Of a DNA stretch of 64,000 nucleotides, positions 5,599 through 13,490 are shown piece after piece; position 1 is the first letter of the stretch, and the number at the start of each line of letters is the position of its first letter. The stretch is from positions 320,001 to 384,000 of the forward strand of contig CAXXGI010000002.1 in NCBI GenBank assembly GCA_963674695.2, in the 5' to 3' direction. Under the pieces are notes generated by a model. It had not been told where the DNA came from and did not search any database. It worked only from the letters and a program-made list of their open reading frames with translations. This stretch comes from a bacterium. Its GTDB lineage: Bacteria > UBA10199 > 2-02-FULL-44-16 > JAAZCA01. Made by a program: the position numbers and the translations under genes.

Positions 5599-6890
5599 AG
5601 CAGTTCCCGATAGGCCTCGTGTGTTTTTTCGGCGGCGCGATGCCATTCGATGGCCATGGCTTCCTGTTGGCCGGCCAGGGCGACGCGTTCGCGCTCTTCC
5701 GGATGTTCCAACAGGTGCACGATGGTGTCGGCCATCTCTTCGACATCCCAGAAGTTGATCTTGTAGGCGTTGGAGATCACCTCCGCCACGCCCGACTGTT
5801 TGGAGACGATCGCCACCGCGCCGGAAGCCATCGCCTCCAGCGGCACGATGCCGAACGGTTCGGAGATGGACGGCAGCATCAGGATGTCGGTCGTGGCCAA
5901 CAGCGCATCGACCTGATCGCGGTCCAAAAATCCCGTCGCGAGGAAGCGGTCTTTCAACCTGCGGGCGGCAGCGCCGTGCAGGATGCGCGAGAACATGTCG
6001 CCGCTGCCGGCCAGGACGAAGCGCACGCGTTCATGGCGCGCCAACACGCGTGCGGCGACATCGAGAAAGTAATCGGGTCCCTTTTGCAGCGTGACGCGTC
6101 CGAGCAGGAGCACGATCGGGTCGCGAAAAAGACGATGGCGCGCGCGCGGCTTTCCGGGGAGCGTGTGCGCATTGTGCACCACGCGCACCTTTTCCATCGG
6201 GATGCGATAGCGGTCGCAGATCATCTGCGCGGTATACTGGGAGACGGCGATGATCTGGTCGGCGGCCATGAGCCCCGCGTATTCGATCTTGTGAATGCGC
6301 TCATCCCCCGGCCCGCCCGCGCGGTCGAACTCGGTGGCGTGGATGTGGGCGATCAGCGGTTTTCCCAGGATGTGTTTCAGGATGATGCCGGCTGGATAGG
6401 TGAGCCAGTCGTGCGCATGGATCGCATCGCATTCGATCGCCGAGGCGAACTTCGCCGCTCGTGCGGCATAGGCGCGCACGCGTCGGAAGAGATCCTCCTC
6501 GCCGTTCATGTGGAGGGAGAGTTCTTCGATGCCCGGCAGCGGATGGGTCGTCGCACCCGTTTCGATCTGTGCGAGCACTCGTTCGAAGAGGGCGGGCGTG
6601 GTGTACGATTCCGGAAGCGTCATCAACCCCAGCTGCACCAGGCGTTGGCGCAGCTCGCCTTCGATCGTGGGCGCGCCCTGCGCCTGCCGGGTCGCATCGA
6701 GAAAGGCGGCCGGAAGCGAATCGGAATCGGCGGTCTGTCGCAGCGGAAAGAAGACCTCTTCGCTCGTCGGCAGGAGCATGTCGAGCTGGATGCCTATGTC
6801 CAGCAGGCCCTTGAACAGGCCATAGCAGGCCATGCCCAAGCCGCCCGAGATGAAGGGCGGAAATTCCCATGTGAGCATGAGGATCTTCAT
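5586..6890 (-). CDS. GT4 glycosyltransferase (glucan synthase-like)
   Basis: TWEFPP..SGGLG, HAHDW, QKGPDYF, PSISEPFGIVPLEAM; TGATG overlap with the upstream gene. Confidence 0.92.
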   Translation of the reverse strand: MKILMLTWEFPPFISGGLGMACYGLFKGLLDIGIQLDMLLPTSEEVFFPLRQTADSDSLPAAFLDATRQAQGAPTIEGELRQRLVQLGLMTLPESYTTPALFERVLAQIETGATTHPLPGIEELSLHMNGEEDLFRRVRAYAARAAKFASAIECDAIHAHDWLTYPAGIILKHILGKPLIAHIHATEFDRAGGPGDERIHKIEYAGLMAADQIIAVSQYTAQMICDRYRIPMEKVRVVHNAHTLPGKPRARHRLFRDPIVLLLGRVTLQKGPDYFLDVAARVLARHERVRFVLAGSGDMFSRILHGAAARRLKDRFLATGFLDRDQVDALLATTDILMLPSISEPFGIVPLEAMASGAVAIVSKQSGVAEVISNAYKINFWDVEEMADTIVHLLEHPEERERVALAGQQEAMAIEWHRAAEKTHEAYRELLCCT

Positions 6891-8905
6891 CAGGCGCCCT
6901 GTCCGTTCTGAGCATCCAGCAACAGGTGCTCGATCTCCAGCAGGGCGAAGACGCTCCAGGCCTGAGCGGGGCAGCCCTTGGGAAGCTTGGGGTCGATGCC
7001 GTCCCAGATCTCGGGGATCGAGGCCAGCTCGCCGCGCATCAGGTCGTTGCGCAGCGTCCAGGCGGTGCGCGTGGCTTCCTTGATCCAACCCTCATCCGAG
7101 CCGTTTTGCTTCAGGACCTTTCGCGCGAGCATCACATAGGGGAGCAGGAGGAAGGTCCAGACCGTCCCCTGATGATAGGCGAAATCGCGCTGTTTCTGCG
7201 AGCCGACATACTTCTGTTTGAAGGCCGGATTCGCCGGATCGAGGCTGCGCAGCCCATACGGCGTGAGGAGCTTTTCCCGCGCGGTGCGGAAGACGCGTGC
7301 GCAGACATCTGTATCCACGACGTCGAAGGGGAGCGAGAGCGCGATGACCGCATTGGGCCGAATCTCCCAGATGGGGCTGTCCCCTTCGATGCGATCGGCC
7401 AAAAAATTTTCACCCACGAAGGCGGAAAACGACTGGCGAACCTTCTCCGCATGGGCGGCGACGGTGGCGATGTCGCATCGCTGCGAATGGCATTCGAGTT
7501 CACCCACGCCCTGAATCTCGGCCATGGCGACCACCGCGCGCAGCGCGTTGTACCAGAGGGCGTTGATCTCCACGGGTTTGCCCCAACGCGGGGTGACGGG
7601 TTTGCCGTAGATCTTGGCGTCCATCCAGGTCAGCCCGTAGTCGCCCTGCTGGATCTCGATGAGACCGTCTTCGCTCGTGAAGAACGGGTGCCGATCGTCG
7701 AAGAGGTAGTGCAGCACCACGCGGCCGGCGGCGTTCAAGAGATCGCGATCGGTCGGTGCATATTCGAAGCAGCGCAGGGCGAACCAGAGCGGCGCGTCGA
7801 TGCTGTCGTAGTTGAGCCCCTCGCCCCCTTCGCCGAAGGTGTTCGGCAGCAGGCCATGCCGGAGTGCTTTGGCGTAGCGCTTCAGGAGCCCCACCCCTCG
7901 CTTCGTTCCGCCTTTCAGTCGGCGCAAACCCCCCAGACAGATGAGCGAGTCGCGCGCCCAGGCGCCGAACCAAGGATATCCGGCCAGGAGGTCCGAATCG
8001 GCGCCGAAAAAATCGCGCGCCGCAAACTCGAGGATCTGCAGGGCCTCGTTCTTTTCGAAGAGGATGGCATCGGTGTGCTTCGGCGTGGTCGTCGCCCCCG
8101 CACGTTTGGGGTGATCCGCCGGAAGCGGAAGCTTCGCATAGCGCTTCTGCGCCTGCTCAGCGATCTCGAAGGGGGCGTCGAGCGGTTCGGCCGAACAGAC
8201 AAACCGCACGCTCTCCTGCGGCGCGAGCGTGCACCGGATTCGGAAGGGGGCGATGAGATCCTCGGCGGCATCGTAGCCGCGCGCGGCCTCCAGCGGATAG
8301 AAGACGGAGCGATAGATGGCCTGGTCTTCCAAGATCTCTCCGTGCTCGATGTAGCCGCAGGCGCCGTATCCGTTATCGCTGCGACGCACGGTGAAAAAAC
8401 CATCGTTCGTTCCACGTTCCAGGCCCACCCGATCCCACGTGCCGGGGGTGTTCACCGCATGGTGATCGCGCAGCGTGAACTTCGGGCGCAGCGTCAGTTC
8501 GATCGGTTGTTCGCCCCGGTTGGTGTAGCGAACGACGACGACGTTTTTTCCTTCGGCCAGGAAGATCTCCTTGAAGACCACAAACCCGGGATTCGGGGGG
8601 AGGGTGGAGAAGAGGGCGCACGGATAGGGGCGCAGCCACGATTCCACGATGTGGGCCGCACCGTTCGGATGGATGCAGTTGAGGTAGTGGTTGCTGTCGA
8701 GGGGAAAGACGGTGCCGCCGGATTCGACCTGTTCTTCGATTGTGGCGAGCGTGTGCACCCGCTTGTGCTGATGGCGTTCGGCGATGAGCAGGCCGTCGTA
8801 TTTGCGCTTGTTGACCATGTTGCCAAAGCCGAGCGCATACGCGCCCGTGCCGTTGGTCAGGATCCACTCGCGGTCGGAGATGCAACCCAGCGCCGGGGCA
8901 TTCAT
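6890..8905 (-). CDS. Amylo-alpha-1,6-glucosidase / archaeal-type glycogen debranching enzyme
   Basis: REWILTNGTGAYA, AGYPWF..WARD, LTWMDAK, YHQGTVW, GCPAQAWS. Confidence 0.92.
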   Translation of the reverse strand: MNAPALGCISDREWILTNGTGAYALGFGNMVNKRKYDGLLIAERHQHKRVHTLATIEEQVESGGTVFPLDSNHYLNCIHPNGAAHIVESWLRPYPCALFSTLPPNPGFVVFKEIFLAEGKNVVVVRYTNRGEQPIELTLRPKFTLRDHHAVNTPGTWDRVGLERGTNDGFFTVRRSDNGYGACGYIEHGEILEDQAIYRSVFYPLEAARGYDAAEDLIAPFRIRCTLAPQESVRFVCSAEPLDAPFEIAEQAQKRYAKLPLPADHPKRAGATTTPKHTDAILFEKNEALQILEFAARDFFGADSDLLAGYPWFGAWARDSLICLGGLRRLKGGTKRGVGLLKRYAKALRHGLLPNTFGEGGEGLNYDSIDAPLWFALRCFEYAPTDRDLLNAAGRVVLHYLFDDRHPFFTSEDGLIEIQQGDYGLTWMDAKIYGKPVTPRWGKPVEINALWYNALRAVVAMAEIQGVGELECHSQRCDIATVAAHAEKVRQSFSAFVGENFLADRIEGDSPIWEIRPNAVIALSLPFDVVDTDVCARVFRTAREKLLTPYGLRSLDPANPAFKQKYVGSQKQRDFAYHQGTVWTFLLLPYVMLARKVLKQNGSDEGWIKEATRTAWTLRNDLMRGELASIPEIWDGIDPKLPKGCPAQAWSVFALLEIEHLLLDAQNGQGA

Positions 8906-9013
8906 GAAACGATCCTTTCGGGATGGGAAATCCCTCCCTATCTATCAGCGCGCTGGGGTGGAGGCAATTCAAATGCGATTGCGGTATGCGATTTTTAAGG
9001 TGGTTTATCTGTG

Positions 9014-9166
9014 GGGCACTTCTAAAAACCCGGTTGTGACTGTCATCCCCGAATGGGGTAATCGGGGATCCAGTTCCGGACAGTCGTACACACAGGCACC
9101 TGGCTGGATTCCCGCTTTAAGCATGCGGGAATGACATGCGTAAAGAGCACGTTTTTTGAGGTGCCC
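9014..9166. mobile_element. MITE-like element with GGGCAC(T/C)TC..AAAAC terminal inverted repeats and an internal GTCAT-type REP pair
   Basis: gggcacttctaaaaac ... gttttttgaggtgccc; internal gtcatccccg...gcgggaatgac; the same ends occur at 33419-33549. Confidence 0.7.
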
Positions 9167-9251
9167 TATTGCCAACGCGAACAAAAAACGATAGGAGCCT
9201 ACCCAGCATTTTGGCACATCATAATGGATCAGAACGATTGGGAGGGTTTCC

Positions 9252-9461
9252 ATGGTTCAGCGTATTATCCGGATGATCAAACCCCGCCGCCGCATAACGA
9301 AGGACTCGACCTTGCCGACGGTTTCTGAAGAGCAGTTCGCCGAGTTGACCCAGCAGCGGGCTTTCGAACTCTATTCCCGCCGTGGAACGGATCAGGGCGA
9401 TGCCCTGGCCGACTGGCTCGAGGCCGAGCAACAGGTCCGGGTGGAAGTCGAAGTCGGATAA
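9252..9461 (+). CDS. Small DUF2934-like protein
   Basis: RAFELYSRRG..QGDALADWLEAEQQV resembles the DUF2934 signature; GGAGG SD. Confidence 0.7.
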   Translation: MVQRIIRMIKPRRRITKDSTLPTVSEEQFAELTQQRAFELYSRRGTDQGDALADWLEAEQQVRVEVEVG

Positions 9462-9481
9462 GTGCGGCCTGTCGGTGTCGA

Positions 9482-10099
9482 TTACGGCACGAGTCTCATC
9501 GCAGCGCTCCAGAGGAAATAACCGCCGAACGCCGTCATGATCAGGCCGCAGAGGCGCAGGACCCAGCGTTGCCAGGCCCCGCCCAACCGAATGGAACGCG
9601 CGGCACCATACCCCACCAATCCATACCAGCAGAGATCCACGAGGATGTGCGCCAGAAAGGCGAGGATGAGCACCCCTGCCGACCACTCGAGCGCTCGGGC
9701 GATGATCGCCGCACCGGCGGTGGCCCACCAGAGAAAGAAATAGGGATTGAGCGAAGCGATGATGCCGGCGGCGATGGAGCGGCGAGTACGCTTTCCTTCG
9801 GGCATGATCGCTATTGCCGGTTGTGCGCGCAGGTTCTCGATGCCCATCCCGATGAGCATCGCGCCACCGGCGAGCCCCACGACGACATAGGTGGTTGGAC
9901 CCTTCAGGAAGTGCGCAAGTCCGAAGGCGATGAGCAGGACGAGTGGCCCTTCGACGGCAGCGTGCCCGACAACGACTTCGAGTCCCGCCCAGCGGTTGCG
10001 CGGCGCGGCGCCGATCACGACCGCCAAGACCGGTCCGGGCATCAGCGCACCTGAAGTTGAGATGGCGGCAACCGAGAGGAGAAAGAGGAGGATGTCCAT
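9482..10099 (-). CDS. LysE-family exporter
   Basis: SGALMPGP, VVGHAAVE, SLNPYFFLWW; multiple TM segments. Confidence 0.88.
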   Translation of the reverse strand: MDILLFLLSVAAISTSGALMPGPVLAVVIGAAPRNRWAGLEVVVGHAAVEGPLVLLIAFGLAHFLKGPTTYVVVGLAGGAMLIGMGIENLRAQPAIAIMPEGKRTRRSIAAGIIASLNPYFFLWWATAGAAIIARALEWSAGVLILAFLAHILVDLCWYGLVGYGAARSIRLGGAWQRWVLRLCGLIMTAFGGYFLWSAAMRLVP

Positions 10100-10102
10100 G
10101 GG

Positions 10103-10282
10103 TCAGGCGATCAATTCCAGCATGCGCTCGGCCAGGCGCACGTGTTCGATTTCGTCTTGGCGGATCACTTCGATTTTTTCGCGCACCTCTGCATCCTGCA
10201 CTTGGTCGAGAATATTTGTATAAATCTCGACGGCCCGCTGCTCCACCTCAAGGATTTTTTCAAACTCAGTTTTAGAAATCAT
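10103..10282 (-). CDS. Half-ferritin-like two-helix protein B' (59 aa, absent from the ORF track)
   Basis: Hand translation MISKTEFEKILEVEQRAVEIYTNILDQVQDAEVREKIEVIRQDEIEHVRLAERMLELIA; E...DExxH motif; clear paralogue of 10551-10733. Confidence 0.82.
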   Translation of the reverse strand: MISKTEFEKILEVEQRAVEIYTNILDQVQDAEVREKIEVIRQDEIEHVRLAERMLELIA

Positions 10283-10517
10283 CGGCGTCCTTTCCGCGAA
10301 TCAGTTCTTCGGTTTCATGCACCAGTTTTTTATGGCGTTCCGAGTCGGTCTTGATCGTCGTGAGGATGCTGCGGATCTCATCGCGCGCTTCGGGCGAGAC
10401 GCCGAAATCGGCGTTGCGCTCGATGTGAAACGAGAGGATCTGCGCCAGAGCGTTGATATGAGATTCCTCCAGCGCGTGGGCATCTTTGAGGGATTGCAGC
10501 AGGAGATCGCGGTGCAT
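10272..10517 (-). CDS. Half-ferritin-like two-helix protein A' (81 aa)
   Basis: GAGGAG SD before ATG at 10517; LEES...TDSERH; paralogue of 10723-10962. Confidence 0.8.
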   Translation of the reverse strand: MHRDLLLQSLKDAHALEESHINALAQILSFHIERNADFGVSPEARDEIRSILTTIKTDSERHKKLVHETEELIRGKDADDF

Positions 10518-10550
10518 GTGGTGCTCCTCGATGAAGGGTGCGTTGGCCAA

Positions 10551-10733
10551 TCATTCTTGAATCAGTTCGAGCAGGCGCTCGGCAATCTTGATGTGCCGCT
10601 CCTCGTCGTCGCGGATCTCTGCGATTTTGTCGCGCACGTTCTCGCGCGTGATCTGTTCGACCAACTTTTGGTAGTGATCGCGCGCCTGGATCTCGAGCCC
10701 GAGGATCTTTTCAAAATCTGCTTTAGATGTCAT
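10551..10733 (-). CDS. Half-ferritin-like two-helix protein B (60 aa)
   Basis: MTSKADFEKILGLEIQARDHY...IRDDEERHIKIAERLL; ferritin/rubrerythrin-type E...ExxH spacing. Confidence 0.82.
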   Translation of the reverse strand: MTSKADFEKILGLEIQARDHYQKLVEQITRENVRDKIAEIRDDEERHIKIAERLLELIQE

Positions 10734-10962
10734 CGCTGTCCACCCCGTAGATGAGGTCCTTTGTCTCTTCCAAATACCGCCGATGCTTGCGGCAATCTTC
10801 CGTGAGGATCGTGAGCAGCCCCTTGATCTCGAGCCGATTCTTCTCGGGGATGTCGTCTTGACGGTCGGTGTAGAAGGAGAGGATCTGCGTGAGCATGAGG
10901 ACGATCGATTCCTCCATCGCATCGCCTCGAGAGAGGGCTTCGAGTAGCTGGGTTCGCTCCAT
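10723..10962 (-). CDS. Half-ferritin-like two-helix protein A (79 aa)
   Basis: AAAGGA SD before ATG at 10962; MEES...EDCRKH; stop overlaps the B start by 11 nt. Confidence 0.8.
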   Translation of the reverse strand: MERTQLLEALSRGDAMEESIVLMLTQILSFYTDRQDDIPEKNRLEIKGLLTILTEDCRKHRRYLEETKDLIYGVDSDDI

Positions 10963-11054
10963 GGGGAATCCTTTCGACAAAAACCATTGTATCGTCGATG
11001 GGGGGATCGCGCAAGAAGTCGATGGATGACGAAGGTGGGGGGCTTTGACGGAAC

Positions 11055-11084
11055 AAAAAACAGGGGGCCCAACCACGGGCCCCC
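11055..11084 (-). terminator. Rho-independent terminator
   Basis: GGGGGCCC-loop-GGGCCCCC stem followed by TGTTTTTT on the minus strand. Confidence 0.8.
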
Positions 11085-11133
11085 AAAGGGAGGAGAATTG
11101 TCTGTGTCAGATGTTTCCGTTTGTGCGTTCTCA
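11055..11133 (-). ncRNA. Candidate sRNA (~80 nt) with an anti-SD tract
   Basis: Lies between a sigma28-like promoter (11140-11166) and a strong terminator; contains UUCUCCUCCCUUU; no credible ORF. Confidence 0.5.
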
Positions 11134-11139
11134 TAACTG

Positions 11140-11166
11140 TTATCGGCGAAGGGATGTGTAAAGTTG
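11140..11166 (-). promoter_or_regulatory. Sigma28 (FliA)-like promoter
   Basis: CAAC-N15-GCCGATAA; the -10 box matches the sigma28 consensus exactly. Confidence 0.65.
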
Positions 11167-11276
11167 CGTTTTTAATACAAAAACCGTTTACAAAAGAGAA
11201 CAGCCGATCCCCCCTTTTCATGTTCGGGTTGGTGCATATAATGAGGAACGTCATTCGATCGGAACGGGGGGAATTC

Positions 11277-12335
11277 ATGCAATGTATTCGGTACAGAGGA
11301 CGATGGCTCTTCGCTATGGCGTTGATCGCGATAACCCTCTTTGCAGCGGTTTCGCTCGAAGCGGCTGAGCTTAGTGATGCCGCTCCATTTCAGGTGACCT
11401 CTGCGATGCGCGGGCGGCCGGATCCGGAAGGGACGCCCACGCCGGTCAAGATCGGTGTCTATATCCTGGACGTCTACGATATCGATGATGTAGAGCAGAC
11501 CTTCACCGCAGAGTTCGCCTATCGCCTGCAGTGGCGCGATGAACGCCTGGCGGCGGGGCTCGCTGAAGGCGAGACGCGGCGCTTCGGGATGGAGGAGGTC
11601 TGGCGCCCAAACGTCCTCGTCTTCAACGGGCGCGGGCTCGAGTCACAGGTGGAACGCTTCATCGAGGTCGATGCACAGGGAAACGTCAGTCTCTGGCAGC
11701 GCGATTATGGTGATCTCGCCTTTCGTTTGAACCTGCGCGATTTTCCATTCGATACCCATCATCTTCCCATCATCTTCGTCTCCGGTCGCTATGGCCCGGA
11801 AGCGGTTCGCTTCGAGGTCGATCGGCGCTTCACCGGCGAGTCGGAAGAGCTCGCCATCGCCGATTGGATGATTCGAGCCGCCGAGCCGAGGCTGGATGGA
11901 TATCACTTCGCTCCCCAGGGGCGCGATCTGTCGATGGCGGTCTTTCGCATCGAGGCGACGCGTCGCGTGGGTTTCTTCGTCTGGCGCGTCATCGCTCCGC
12001 TCATGCTCATCGTCTTCATGTCCTGGATGGTCTTCTGGATCGATCCAAATCACCTGGAGGCCCAGGTGGGGGTTTCAGCCACATCGGTGCTCACGCTCGT
12101 CGCCTTTCAGTTTGCCTTGGGCGTGTTGCTCCCGCGCATCGCGTATCTGACGCGCATCGACATCTTCATTCTCATCACATCGTTGTTGGTTTTTCTAGCG
12201 CTCGTGGAGGGAGTCGTTACCAGCGGGTTGGCCGGGAAGGGGCGCCATGAAACGGCGCTTCGCATCGACTGGTGGTCGCGACGACTCTTCCCGACGGTCT
12301 ATGTTGTCGCCTCGGCGCTGACGTTTCTGCTCTGA
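11277..12335 (+). CDS. Prokaryotic pentameric ligand-gated ion channel (GLIC/ELIC family)
   Basis: Signal peptide; WRDERL, WRPNV, FPFD Pro-loop, M1 PLMLIVFMSWMVFWI, M2-M3 LPRIAYLT; four TM helices. Confidence 0.9.
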   Translation: MQCIRYRGRWLFAMALIAITLFAAVSLEAAELSDAAPFQVTSAMRGRPDPEGTPTPVKIGVYILDVYDIDDVEQTFTAEFAYRLQWRDERLAAGLAEGETRRFGMEEVWRPNVLVFNGRGLESQVERFIEVDAQGNVSLWQRDYGDLAFRLNLRDFPFDTHHLPIIFVSGRYGPEAVRFEVDRRFTGESEELAIADWMIRAAEPRLDGYHFAPQGRDLSMAVFRIEATRRVGFFVWRVIAPLMLIVFMSWMVFWIDPNHLEAQVGVSATSVLTLVAFQFALGVLLPRIAYLTRIDIFILITSLLVFLALVEGVVTSGLAGKGRHETALRIDWWSRRLFPTVYVVASALTFLL

Positions 12336-12350
12336 GGGTTCGAACGGTTT

Positions 12351-13490
12351 TTATCGATGCACGTGGGAATAGGCGCGCACGATTTCCAACACGCGCCCGA
12401 GCGGCAGGGCATTGGCGCGATTGCCCGAGTGCCCCTCCATCGTCTCGGCCATGCACAGCGCATTCATGATGGCCTCTTCGGTTGCCTCGATCGTGGCGCG
12501 ATAGAGCGGGTCGATGGCTGTATCGAGCAGCACCTTCATCTTATAGCGCATCTTCTTCGACTGCCTCGGGACCGTGTTGGCGGTGGAGAATCCCACCATG
12601 ATCTCGCCCGAATCGTTTGCCGCGATCGATCCGCAGCGCCCGACACCGAGGGCCGCGCGTTTGCACAGCCGCGCGATCTGGTGCGACATGAGCGGCGCAT
12701 TGGTGGCGACCACGACGATGATGCTGCCGTAGTTGTGTTCGCGCCGGGGCTCGGTGCGCATCTCCTCCATGAGTATCTCGCCCAAGGGAATGCCGTCCAG
12801 GCGCAGGTCCGCCATCGTGCCGAAGTTGCTCATGACCAGCACGCCGACCACATAGCCGCCCTCCGCCGGTGGCAGGCGCCGTGAGGAGGTGCCGATGCCG
12901 CCCTTGAAGTCGCAGCTGACCATGCCCGTTCCGCCGCCGACGTTCCCTTCTGCAACCGGACCACTGCTGGCATTTGCGATCGCCTCGAGGACGTGTTCTT
13001 CGCGAACGTGTCCGCCGCCGATGTCGTTGAGCCAGGAATCGTCGCATTCGCCCACGACCGGGATGATGACATCATGAATCGTGCCGATGCCGGGGTAGCG
13101 GTCGACCATATACCTGACCACCGCGTCCGAACAGGTGCCGACCGAGAGGGTGTTGGTGAGCAGGATCGGCGTCTCGATGAGCCCCCACTCCACCACCTGC
13201 GTGAGCCCCGAGACCTCGCCCGCGCCGTTGAGGATGAAGCCGCTGCCGACGACGCGTTCGTGAAAGATGTCGCCGCCCACCGGCAGGATCGCGGTCACCC
13301 CGGTGCGCGCGGGGCCCTTGCCCGATCGGAGCTTGCCCTCCCCCTCCCCGTGAACGACCGTTGCGTGTCCGACCATGACGCCCGGCACATCGGTGATCGC
13401 ATTGAAGCGGCCGGTGGGATAGCGTCCAATTTTGACACCCAGCCCGCGCAGCCGCACGCGTTTGCCTTCGCGGATCTTTTTGTCGACCAT
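12351..13490 (-). CDS. dmpA: DmpA/BapA-family (S58/P1) aminopeptidase
   Basis: NAITDVPGVMVGH, VVGECDDSWLND, EGNVGGGTGM, KGGIGTSSR and the G|SIIVVVAT autoprocessing site. Confidence 0.88.
   Translation of the reverse strand: MVDKKIREGKRVRLRGLGVKIGRYPTGRFNAITDVPGVMVGHATVVHGEGEGKLRSGKGPARTGVTAILPVGGDIFHERVVGSGFILNGAGEVSGLTQVVEWGLIETPILLTNTLSVGTCSDAVVRYMVDRYPGIGTIHDVIIPVVGECDDSWLNDIGGGHVREEHVLEAIANASSGPVAEGNVGGGTGMVSCDFKGGIGTSSRRLPPAEGGYVVGVLVMSNFGTMADLRLDGIPLGEILMEEMRTEPRREHNYGSIIVVVATNAPLMSHQIARLCKRAALGVGRCGSIAANDSGEIMVGFSTANTVPRQSKKMRYKMKVLLDTAIDPLYRATIEATEEAIMNALCMAETMEGHSGNRANALPLGRVLEIVRAYSHVHR

Follow-up and report, generated by a model that had tools for sequence, protein, structure and literature searches.

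The closest described systems to the one reported here are the encapsulated ferritins (EncFtn; Rru_A0973, PDB 5da5; Myxococcus xanthus EncB/EncC, 7s5k/7s8t; PF22277), in which two identical chains build a ferroxidase centre from their Glu32, Tyr39, Glu62 and His65 (He et al. 2016, PMC5012862). Statements on this and one further paper (PMC11202242) refer throughout to excerpts of the two sources; those of PMC11202242 also describe short half-ferritin forms that are not encapsulated. He et al. proposed a half of this kind as the duplicated ancestor of the four-helix ferritins, whose site could become asymmetric once the two halves were linked (PMC5012862). Here we describe a locus at positions 9,482 to 10,962 of a 64,000-nucleotide (nt) stretch of a bacterial genome from the phylum UBA10199 (GCA_963674695.2, contig CAXXGI010000002.1, positions 320,001 to 384,000; the whole stretch is called the window below), which holds two tandem pairs of tiny overlapping genes, A-B and A'-B'. 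The two genes of each pair encode two different two-helix proteins. Most likely this is a conserved, unnamed and translationally coupled heteromeric half-ferritin that is duplicated in this genome; the half-ferritins described in the excerpts are homo-oligomers.

Both EncFtn and the A and B proteins have two long helices per chain, and EncFtn shares with B the E-x6-Y...ExxH spacing, its metal site lying between two chains (PMC5012862). EncFtn differs in being a homo-oligomer with a symmetric site and a targeting peptide that needs an encapsulin shell, whereas A and B are distinct chains encoded by separate genes, and one of the chains is without the ExxH Glu. NE0167 (3k6c) is, like A and B, a small half-ferritin for which the excerpts give no recognised targeting peptide (PMC11202242); unlike them, it is encoded by a single gene, forms a homodecamer in the crystal and has no described A-type partner. 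Symerythrin, rubrerythrin and sulerythrin follow the same ligand logic, but in each of them the halves are fused in a single chain and both ExxH motifs are intact. The internal symmetry of symerythrin is the textbook argument for the origin of the fold by duplication of a two-helix unit. In the 'Due Ferri' designs (DF1 1ec5, DFsc 2hz8), helix-loop-helix units dimerise into a diiron four-helix bundle, as we propose for A and B; these designs are artificial, and A/B would be their natural heteromeric counterpart. Asymmetric hetero-assemblies of this kind were engineered as DFtet. A literature search, with supplements outside its scope, found no paper on a heteromeric half-ferritin encoded by two genes, and met the term 'half-ferritin' in He et al. 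2016 only.

A gene for an encapsulin shell (PF04454, Linocin_M18), for which a search had been proposed in an earlier reading of the same DNA made from the letters alone (the sequence-only reading), was not found in the genome, which is 100% complete by marker genes; the same search was positive in 3 control genomes. As no shell gene was found, A and B would not be encapsulin cargo. Inspected by eye, both proteins also end without the GSL-type targeting peptides of Table 2 in PMC11202242, as excerpted.

Gene layout of the locus

Open reading frames (ORFs) were read on the minus strand, with the following result (lengths in amino acids, aa).

10723-10962, minus strand: A, 79-aa two-helix protein with the motif E17-E18...D56-C57-x-x-H60 (ORF reading)
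10551-10733, minus strand: B, 60-aa two-helix protein with the half-site E14, Y21, E44-x-x-H47 (ORF reading)
10272-10517, minus strand: A', 81 aa, paralogue of A (41% identity), D-S-E-R-H
10103-10282, minus strand: B', 59 aa, paralogue of B (48% identity), Q-D-E-I-E-H
9482-10099, minus strand: LysE-family membrane exporter, 205 aa (Pfam profile PF01810)
10723-10733, minus strand: A/B overlap of 11 nt, ATGACATCTAA, the B start lying within the last codons of A
10272-10282, minus strand: A'/B' overlap of 11 nt, ATGATTTCTAA

The five genes lie head to tail with gaps of -11, 33, -11 and 3 nt in the order A, B, A', B', LysE, and no terminator-like site was found on the minus strand inside 9482-10962; they form one apparent operon that ends in the LysE-family exporter. 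Purine-rich, Shine-Dalgarno-like stretches precede the B and B' starts by a few bases (GGGGTGGA and GGAAAGGA, respectively). The ATG of A' at 10517 has GAGGAG before it and fits the M-x-[RK] start of the A family, and the LysE ATG at 10099 stands 3 nt beyond the B' stop. BLASTP gave identities of 41% for A with A' (E 8e-19) and 48% for B with B' (E 3e-16), and no alignment of A with B. The translations carry DDEERH in B, QDEIEH in B', DCRKH in A and DSERH in A'. In the ORF list, B' falls under the default limit of 60 aa, B sits inside a 173-aa TTG-started ORF (10551-11072), and A and A' are listed with longer GTG or TTG starts. The sequence-only reading had described this arrangement, namely four small genes and, 3 nt downstream, a LysE-family exporter, two sets of paralogues, the same overlap geometry in both pairs, one gene absent from the ORF track and another buried in it, and the half-site motifs of both protein types, and each of these points was recovered.

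The A and B protein families

An A profile made from 3 sequences (A, A' and the copy from the relative G004) was used for a full HMMER search of 1,835,955,588 proteins (E ≤ 1e-3), which returned 94 representatives of the family, 88 of them 71-86 aa long. The family alignment comprised 90 of these, with two A-A tandems, one A-B fusion and one 1141-aa protein set aside. His60 is conserved in 90/90 sequences, Glu17 in 89/90, Glu or Asp at position 18 in 87/90 and Asp or Glu at position 56 in 82/90. Position 57 is Ser, Thr or Cys in 88/90 and Glu in 1/90, so that the family motif of the A-type chain reads EE...[DE][STC]xxH in place of ExxH. The Cys or Ser that the sequence-only reading had noted at this place in A and A' is, across the alignment, a defining feature of the family and not an accident of one genome. 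A Tyr seven residues after the first Glu occurs in 33/90 A-family sequences, A and A' not among them. An AlphaFold2 (AF2) model of A from the 90-row alignment had a predicted local distance difference test score (pLDDT) of 87.1, with helices at residues 3-34 and 40-78.

Judged by these searches, A is an unnamed protein family. Neither A nor B retrieved anything beyond itself in word-based homologue searches, and single-protein searches with P0007 and P0005 in genome contigs and with P0016 in metagenome contigs found no relative. The ESM Atlas gave 'hypothetical protein' clusters of 79-80 aa alone, at a recognition value of 2264 that lies just below the 2300 mark and serves as a lead only; P0016 is likewise named 'hypothetical protein' by its source.

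The half-site of B and B', E-x6-Y...ExxH with the Tyr seven residues after the first Glu, is of the classical ferritin type. Phe7, Glu14, Tyr21, Glu44 and His47 are kept in 11/11 copies of B in the phylum and in 36/36 database relatives, the latter having come from a B-profile search whose profile favours the motif; the four of these 36 relatives that carry a name from their sources are called 'hypothetical protein'. B and B' had only matches below threshold, all of them to models of the ferritin clan (Rubrerythrin, COQ7, Ferritin_2, EncFtn-like, DUF455, EncB_fam and MbfA). B matched Rubrerythrin (18.1 bits vs a cut-off of 22.8), COQ7, Ferritin_2 and EncB_fam (23.7 vs 90), B' weakly matched EncFtn-like (16.5 vs 27), Ferritin_2 and DUF455, and PF02915 was weakly matched by 6/11 B copies. 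Searched against the PDB, the B profile found the designed diiron protein 2hz8 (4.2e-9, the best match), bacterioferritin 9viw (1.6e-8), 2fzf (2e-7), symerythrin 3qhb (2.4e-5), EncB 7s5k (5.8e-5), NE0167 3k6c (1.5e-4) and EncFtn 5da5 (1.4e-3), and the A profile found EncC 7s8t (4.8e-3, positions 1-73).

A profile-to-profile comparison of A with B by hhalign gave a probability of 94.2% (E 1.1e-7, 68 columns), in a register that places E17 of A on E14 of B and H60 on H47, with C57 opposite E44. When both families were aligned together, MAFFT stacked the B sequences onto those of A, 67/67 sharing the His column. On these profile comparisons A and B are homologous, and their assignment as two-helix halves of the ferritin superfamily, made earlier from the motifs, is supported by the PDB matches of the B profile together with the A-B profile homology.

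PADLOC matched both B and B' to KwaB only weakly (E 3e-4 to 8e-3), which was judged to be noise. Elsewhere in the same genome (contig 1, 661663-662019, minus strand), a 155-aa frame contains two B-profile matches (8.8e-5 and 5.9e-3) and is probably an ordinary full-length four-helix ferritin-like protein.

The A-B pair as a conserved unit

An A homologue was found with the A profile in 12 of 93 genomes of the phylum, two copies being present in this genome only. A B gene follows A directly in 10/10 loci examined outside this genome, in line with the A-then-B order of the sequence-only reading, and mostly overlaps it; this count leaves out L015, a weak A-profile match (E 5e-4) inside a 641-aa ORF. 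The junctions are as follows.

L004, L006, L011: 11-nt overlap of A and B
L008, L009, L010, L012, L013: 4-nt overlap
L014: 14-nt overlap
L007: 13-nt spacer after the A stop

Seven further loci were retrieved from metagenomes by a junction pattern, and all hold full A and B genes. The pattern presupposes an A end and a B start, so these seven, on which A-B adjacency outside the phylum rests alone, are no independent test of adjacency. An Asp or Asn stands at position -3 from the end in 67/90 A-family sequences, as an xAT-G start buried in the A tail would require, which is an indirect sign of the overlap. The identities among A proteins and among B proteins co-vary across loci (r 0.90 over 15 pairs; 0 of 2000 permutations reach this r), a figure that is inflated by kin that are not independent; the calculation left out L014, where A is partial, L022, where A is cut and contains X, L024, where the contig ends within B, and L027, whose proteins are identical to those of L004. 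Judged by order, overlap and co-variation, the A-B pair is a conserved functional unit of translationally coupled genes.

The conserved overlaps would also suit synthesis of A and B as one polypeptide by programmed frameshifting, an alternative raised in the sequence-only reading, or an origin of the two genes as halves of a decayed single gene, and a natural A-B fusion does exist (P0022, 149 aa). We regard either case as extremely improbable. P0022 is a single sequence from one contig of 510 bp, has no His in its B half and is the sole A-B fusion among the 94 representatives, 88 of which are stand-alone proteins of 71-86 aa, where decayed frameshifts would have left homologues that are always a single fused gene. 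B has its own ATG or GTG start with a purine-rich stretch upstream, and reading of both junctions in the window revealed no slippery run. The frame of B relative to A differs between loci, being +1 in the 11-nt and 14-nt overlaps and -1 in the 4-nt overlaps, and L007 has a stop followed by the 13-nt spacer; these differences make a conserved programmed frameshift unlikely, and since both genes are conserved, gene decay is excluded. An AF2 model of P0022 computed without an alignment was poor (pLDDT 61.8) and was not used.

Predicted A:B complex

Complex prediction for A+B gave an interaction score from aligned errors (ipSAE) of 0.80 (runs 0.81, 0.80 and 0.80), compared with 0.00 for the best of 3 controls. 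The score mark is reached by 58/80 solved complexes and 2/110 mismatched pairs, a calibration that is only rough here, as our own alignments were supplied. The runs share at least 96% of contacts, with a partner pLDDT of at least 89 (B in the complex, 90). The confident interface includes Glu17, Asp56 and His60 of A and Glu14, Tyr21, Asp43 and His47 of B; these are equivalent positions in the hhalign register, in keeping with a bundle of pseudo-two-fold symmetry that resembles the EncFtn centre. A and B are thus predicted by modelling to form a heterodimer. The sequence-only reading had pictured a coupled A+B heterodimer with an asymmetric metal site; its coupling is conserved and its dimer predicted, while metal binding, site asymmetry and the physiological role of A:B are what we infer from these results.

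That A and B instead each homo-oligomerise, as an EncFtn-like dimer or decamer, with the gene coupling merely co-regulating two proteins, seems improbable to us. It would accord with the known half-ferritins, since EncFtn and the short 3k6c form homo-oligomers in the excerpts of PMC5012862 and PMC11202242, and with the A-A tandem fusions found in 2/94 representatives. It is at odds with the strict A-then-B order in 10/10 loci, mostly with overlap, with the co-divergence of A and B (r 0.90) and with the prediction of 0.80 against 0.00 in controls, and a homodimer of A would lack any ExxH Glu.

Favoured explanation and proposed metal site

With moderate confidence, we favour the explanation that each pair, A-B as well as A'-B', consists of two diverged paralogues, both half-ferritin hairpins, which combine into a four-helix bundle with an asymmetric metal site at their interface. 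Translational coupling would deliver A and B in equal amounts, and one A and one B would pack antiparallel into a bundle of the EncFtn or 'Due Ferri' type with the metal site at the subunit interface. B would provide the canonical ligands Glu14 and E44-x-x-H47 and the second-sphere Tyr21, and A would provide Glu17, perhaps Glu18, and His60. Because A has Ser, Thr or Cys where the second bridging Glu belongs, the site would be built asymmetric, from two His and three canonical carboxylates, with Ser, Thr or Cys in place of a fourth. Asp56, the conserved Asp/Glu one residue before S/T/C57, or Glu18 may compensate for the lost carboxylate. The genome of the window would carry two old copies of such a pair in tandem. 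In EncFtn, removal of negative charge at the centre (E32A, E62A) favours metal-free assembly (PMC5012862), and the replacement of Glu by Ser in A may, by analogy, stabilise a metal-free heterodimer.

A and B could also form a helical heterodimer that is no metalloprotein, a small adaptor or regulator of ferritin-like descent in which the conserved Glu and His serve packing or partner binding. Three observations would suit this, namely the mixed genomic contexts described below (GT2 with GH5/GH26, NnrS/NirK, ferredoxin with nitroreductase, LysE), the absence of the canonical ExxH Glu from A in 89/90 sequences and the loss of the His of B in L021 and L025. We still think it rather unlikely, as the His of A is invariant (90/90), as are Glu, Tyr, Glu and His of B (36/36), and these conserved positions lie within the predicted A:B interface and are exactly those of the EncFtn ferroxidase centre as given in the excerpts of PMC5012862.

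Several points weigh against an A:B half-ferritin with an interfacial metal site. A is without one canonical Glu, and the centre of homodimeric EncFtn no longer binds metal when Glu62 is changed to Ala (E62A; PMC5012862). No Pfam or NCBIfam model matched A at E ≤ 1, and the scores of B and B' against the curated profiles PF22277, PF02915 and NF058679 are all below their cut-offs. In a Foldseek search with the A hairpin nothing reached E ≤ 1e-3 (best 0.66), as would be expected of a bare hairpin; generic hairpins lead the list, in which EncC ranks 8th and sulerythrin 24th. The complex score may partly reflect model memory of solved EncFtn or designed homodimers. The A-A tandems (2/94) suggest that pairing between two A-type halves is evidently possible as well, and the variant loci L021 and L025 mean that, at the level of the sequences, the ligand set is not universal. 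Gene neighbourhoods differ so widely that context gives no single physiological role.

In the metagenomic variant pairs L021 and L025, B is without the ExxH His (E-S-V-G and E-S-M-A) and A has H-x-x-H in place of [DE][STC]xxH, as if ligand roles had moved between the partners. The natural A-A tandem fusions P0016 (167 aa) and P0059 (182 aa) carry D-T-x-K-H in both halves and no ExxH, and their first helices contain the acidic runs AEDEEN and AEEEEES.

Ferritin relatives of two helices known so far form homo-oligomers whose iron sites are symmetric. If the favoured half-ferritin reading is true, asymmetry can evolve while the halves stay on separate, translationally coupled genes, and A-B would give the designed heteromeric diiron bundles a counterpart in nature. 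A bolder extension, which we consider possible though doubtful, takes A-B for a natural stage in the evolution of ferritins at which the half had been duplicated but the copies were never fused. The pair would then be an obligate heteromer (a dimer or an alternating (AB)5 ring) whose asymmetric metal centre, with Ser, Thr or Cys for one bridging Glu, serves as a portable module responsive to O2, nitric oxide (NO) or iron. Such a module would have entered unrelated operons, namely those of exopolysaccharide synthases, those of NnrS/NirK genes for nitrosative stress and, as a duplicated copy with an exporter, the one described here. The pair would offer a small and tractable two-chain system in which to follow the effect of one Glu-to-Ser change on a diiron site. 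Because its genes are tiny and overlapping, the A family escapes or misleads annotation pipelines.

The LysE gene and genomic contexts elsewhere

The LysE-family protein matches PF01810 with E 2.6e-29 (102.5 bits vs a cut-off of 25.6; residues 16-197 on profile positions 2-191 of 193), and its match to TIGR00949 is below threshold. Its start 3 nt beyond B' on the same strand had suggested that the pairs work with the exporter in metal handling. We now judge such a partnership distinctly improbable: LysE adjoins the pair in this genome only and is missing from the flanks of all 17 other loci (10/10 in the phylum, 7/7 metagenomic), several of which are short, and we take PF01810 to be an amino-acid exporter family, distinct from the Mn, Cd and Fe/Pb branches of the LysE superfamily. 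A tie of the pair to LysE in metal handling is not supported, and the exporter looks like a local coincidence. As the pair occurs elsewhere in quite different operons, a role dedicated to LysE is less likely, going by gene neighbourhoods, than one as a portable small protein of redox, oxygen/NO-reactive or iron-binding type.

In one subfamily a GT2 cellulose-synthase-like gene, a GH5/GH26 gene or both lie upstream of the pair (L004, L006, L007, L021, L023, L024 and L027). Here A ends in KDVY and B starts with MFT; a BcsG gene follows B in L023, and a TPR protein is encoded upstream in L024. It is an unexpected home for a ferritin-like pair.

A second subfamily lies beside NnrS (L008, L009, L010, L012 and L013, four of the five loci being from one genus). 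NnrS is divergent in four loci and, in L013, belongs to the same operon and overlaps the B stop, with a Crp/FNR-type regulator gene upstream. In L009 (scanned) and L012 (by reading only) the gene after B encodes a NirK-like copper oxidase that has a cytochrome c tail. The NnrS and NirK neighbours hint at a link to NO or nitrite stress. In L011 the pair is followed by a ferredoxin gene and a nitroreductase gene.

Upstream region and neighbouring genes

The region upstream of A and the genes that flank the operon in the window are listed below.

10963-11276, minus strand: 314-nt region upstream of A, with a promoter-like repeated motif and a terminator-like hairpin whose roles are putative
11277-12335, plus strand, divergent: pentameric ligand-gated ion channel homologue (Neur_chan_LBD 3.4e-16, Neur_chan_memb 7e-12)
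12351-13490, minus strand: peptidase S58
9252-9461, plus strand: DUF2934 protein, convergent with LysE
6890-8905, minus strand: glycogen debranching enzyme (GDE_N/GDE_C)

The hairpin (11084-11063, minus strand) has 9 pairs, 8 of them G-C, and is followed by a U run to 11053, about 100 nt 5' of the A start. On the minus strand there is no gene upstream of 11053-11084 for it to terminate; the hairpin could be an attenuator in a leader of about 170 nt, or a small RNA. A search of 9000-11600 against Rfam at E ≤ 1 gave no match, and the folding of the leader is unremarkable (z -1.39).

A motif of about 44-60 nt at 11140-11201 (minus strand) has three more copies in the genome, at 82-88% identity and with 33 invariant columns in the four-way alignment (L028, about 1502-1543; L029, about 1477-1520; L030, about 1457-1500), each just 5' of a large ORF. 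It ends in a GCCGATAA-like box, which we take to resemble the -10 element of sigma-28 or extracytoplasmic-function (ECF)-type promoters, and the motif at 11140-11201 may be the promoter of the operon.

A GlgC-like gene stands after the A-B pair of the relative G004, and glycogen genes thus lie near the pair in both genomes.

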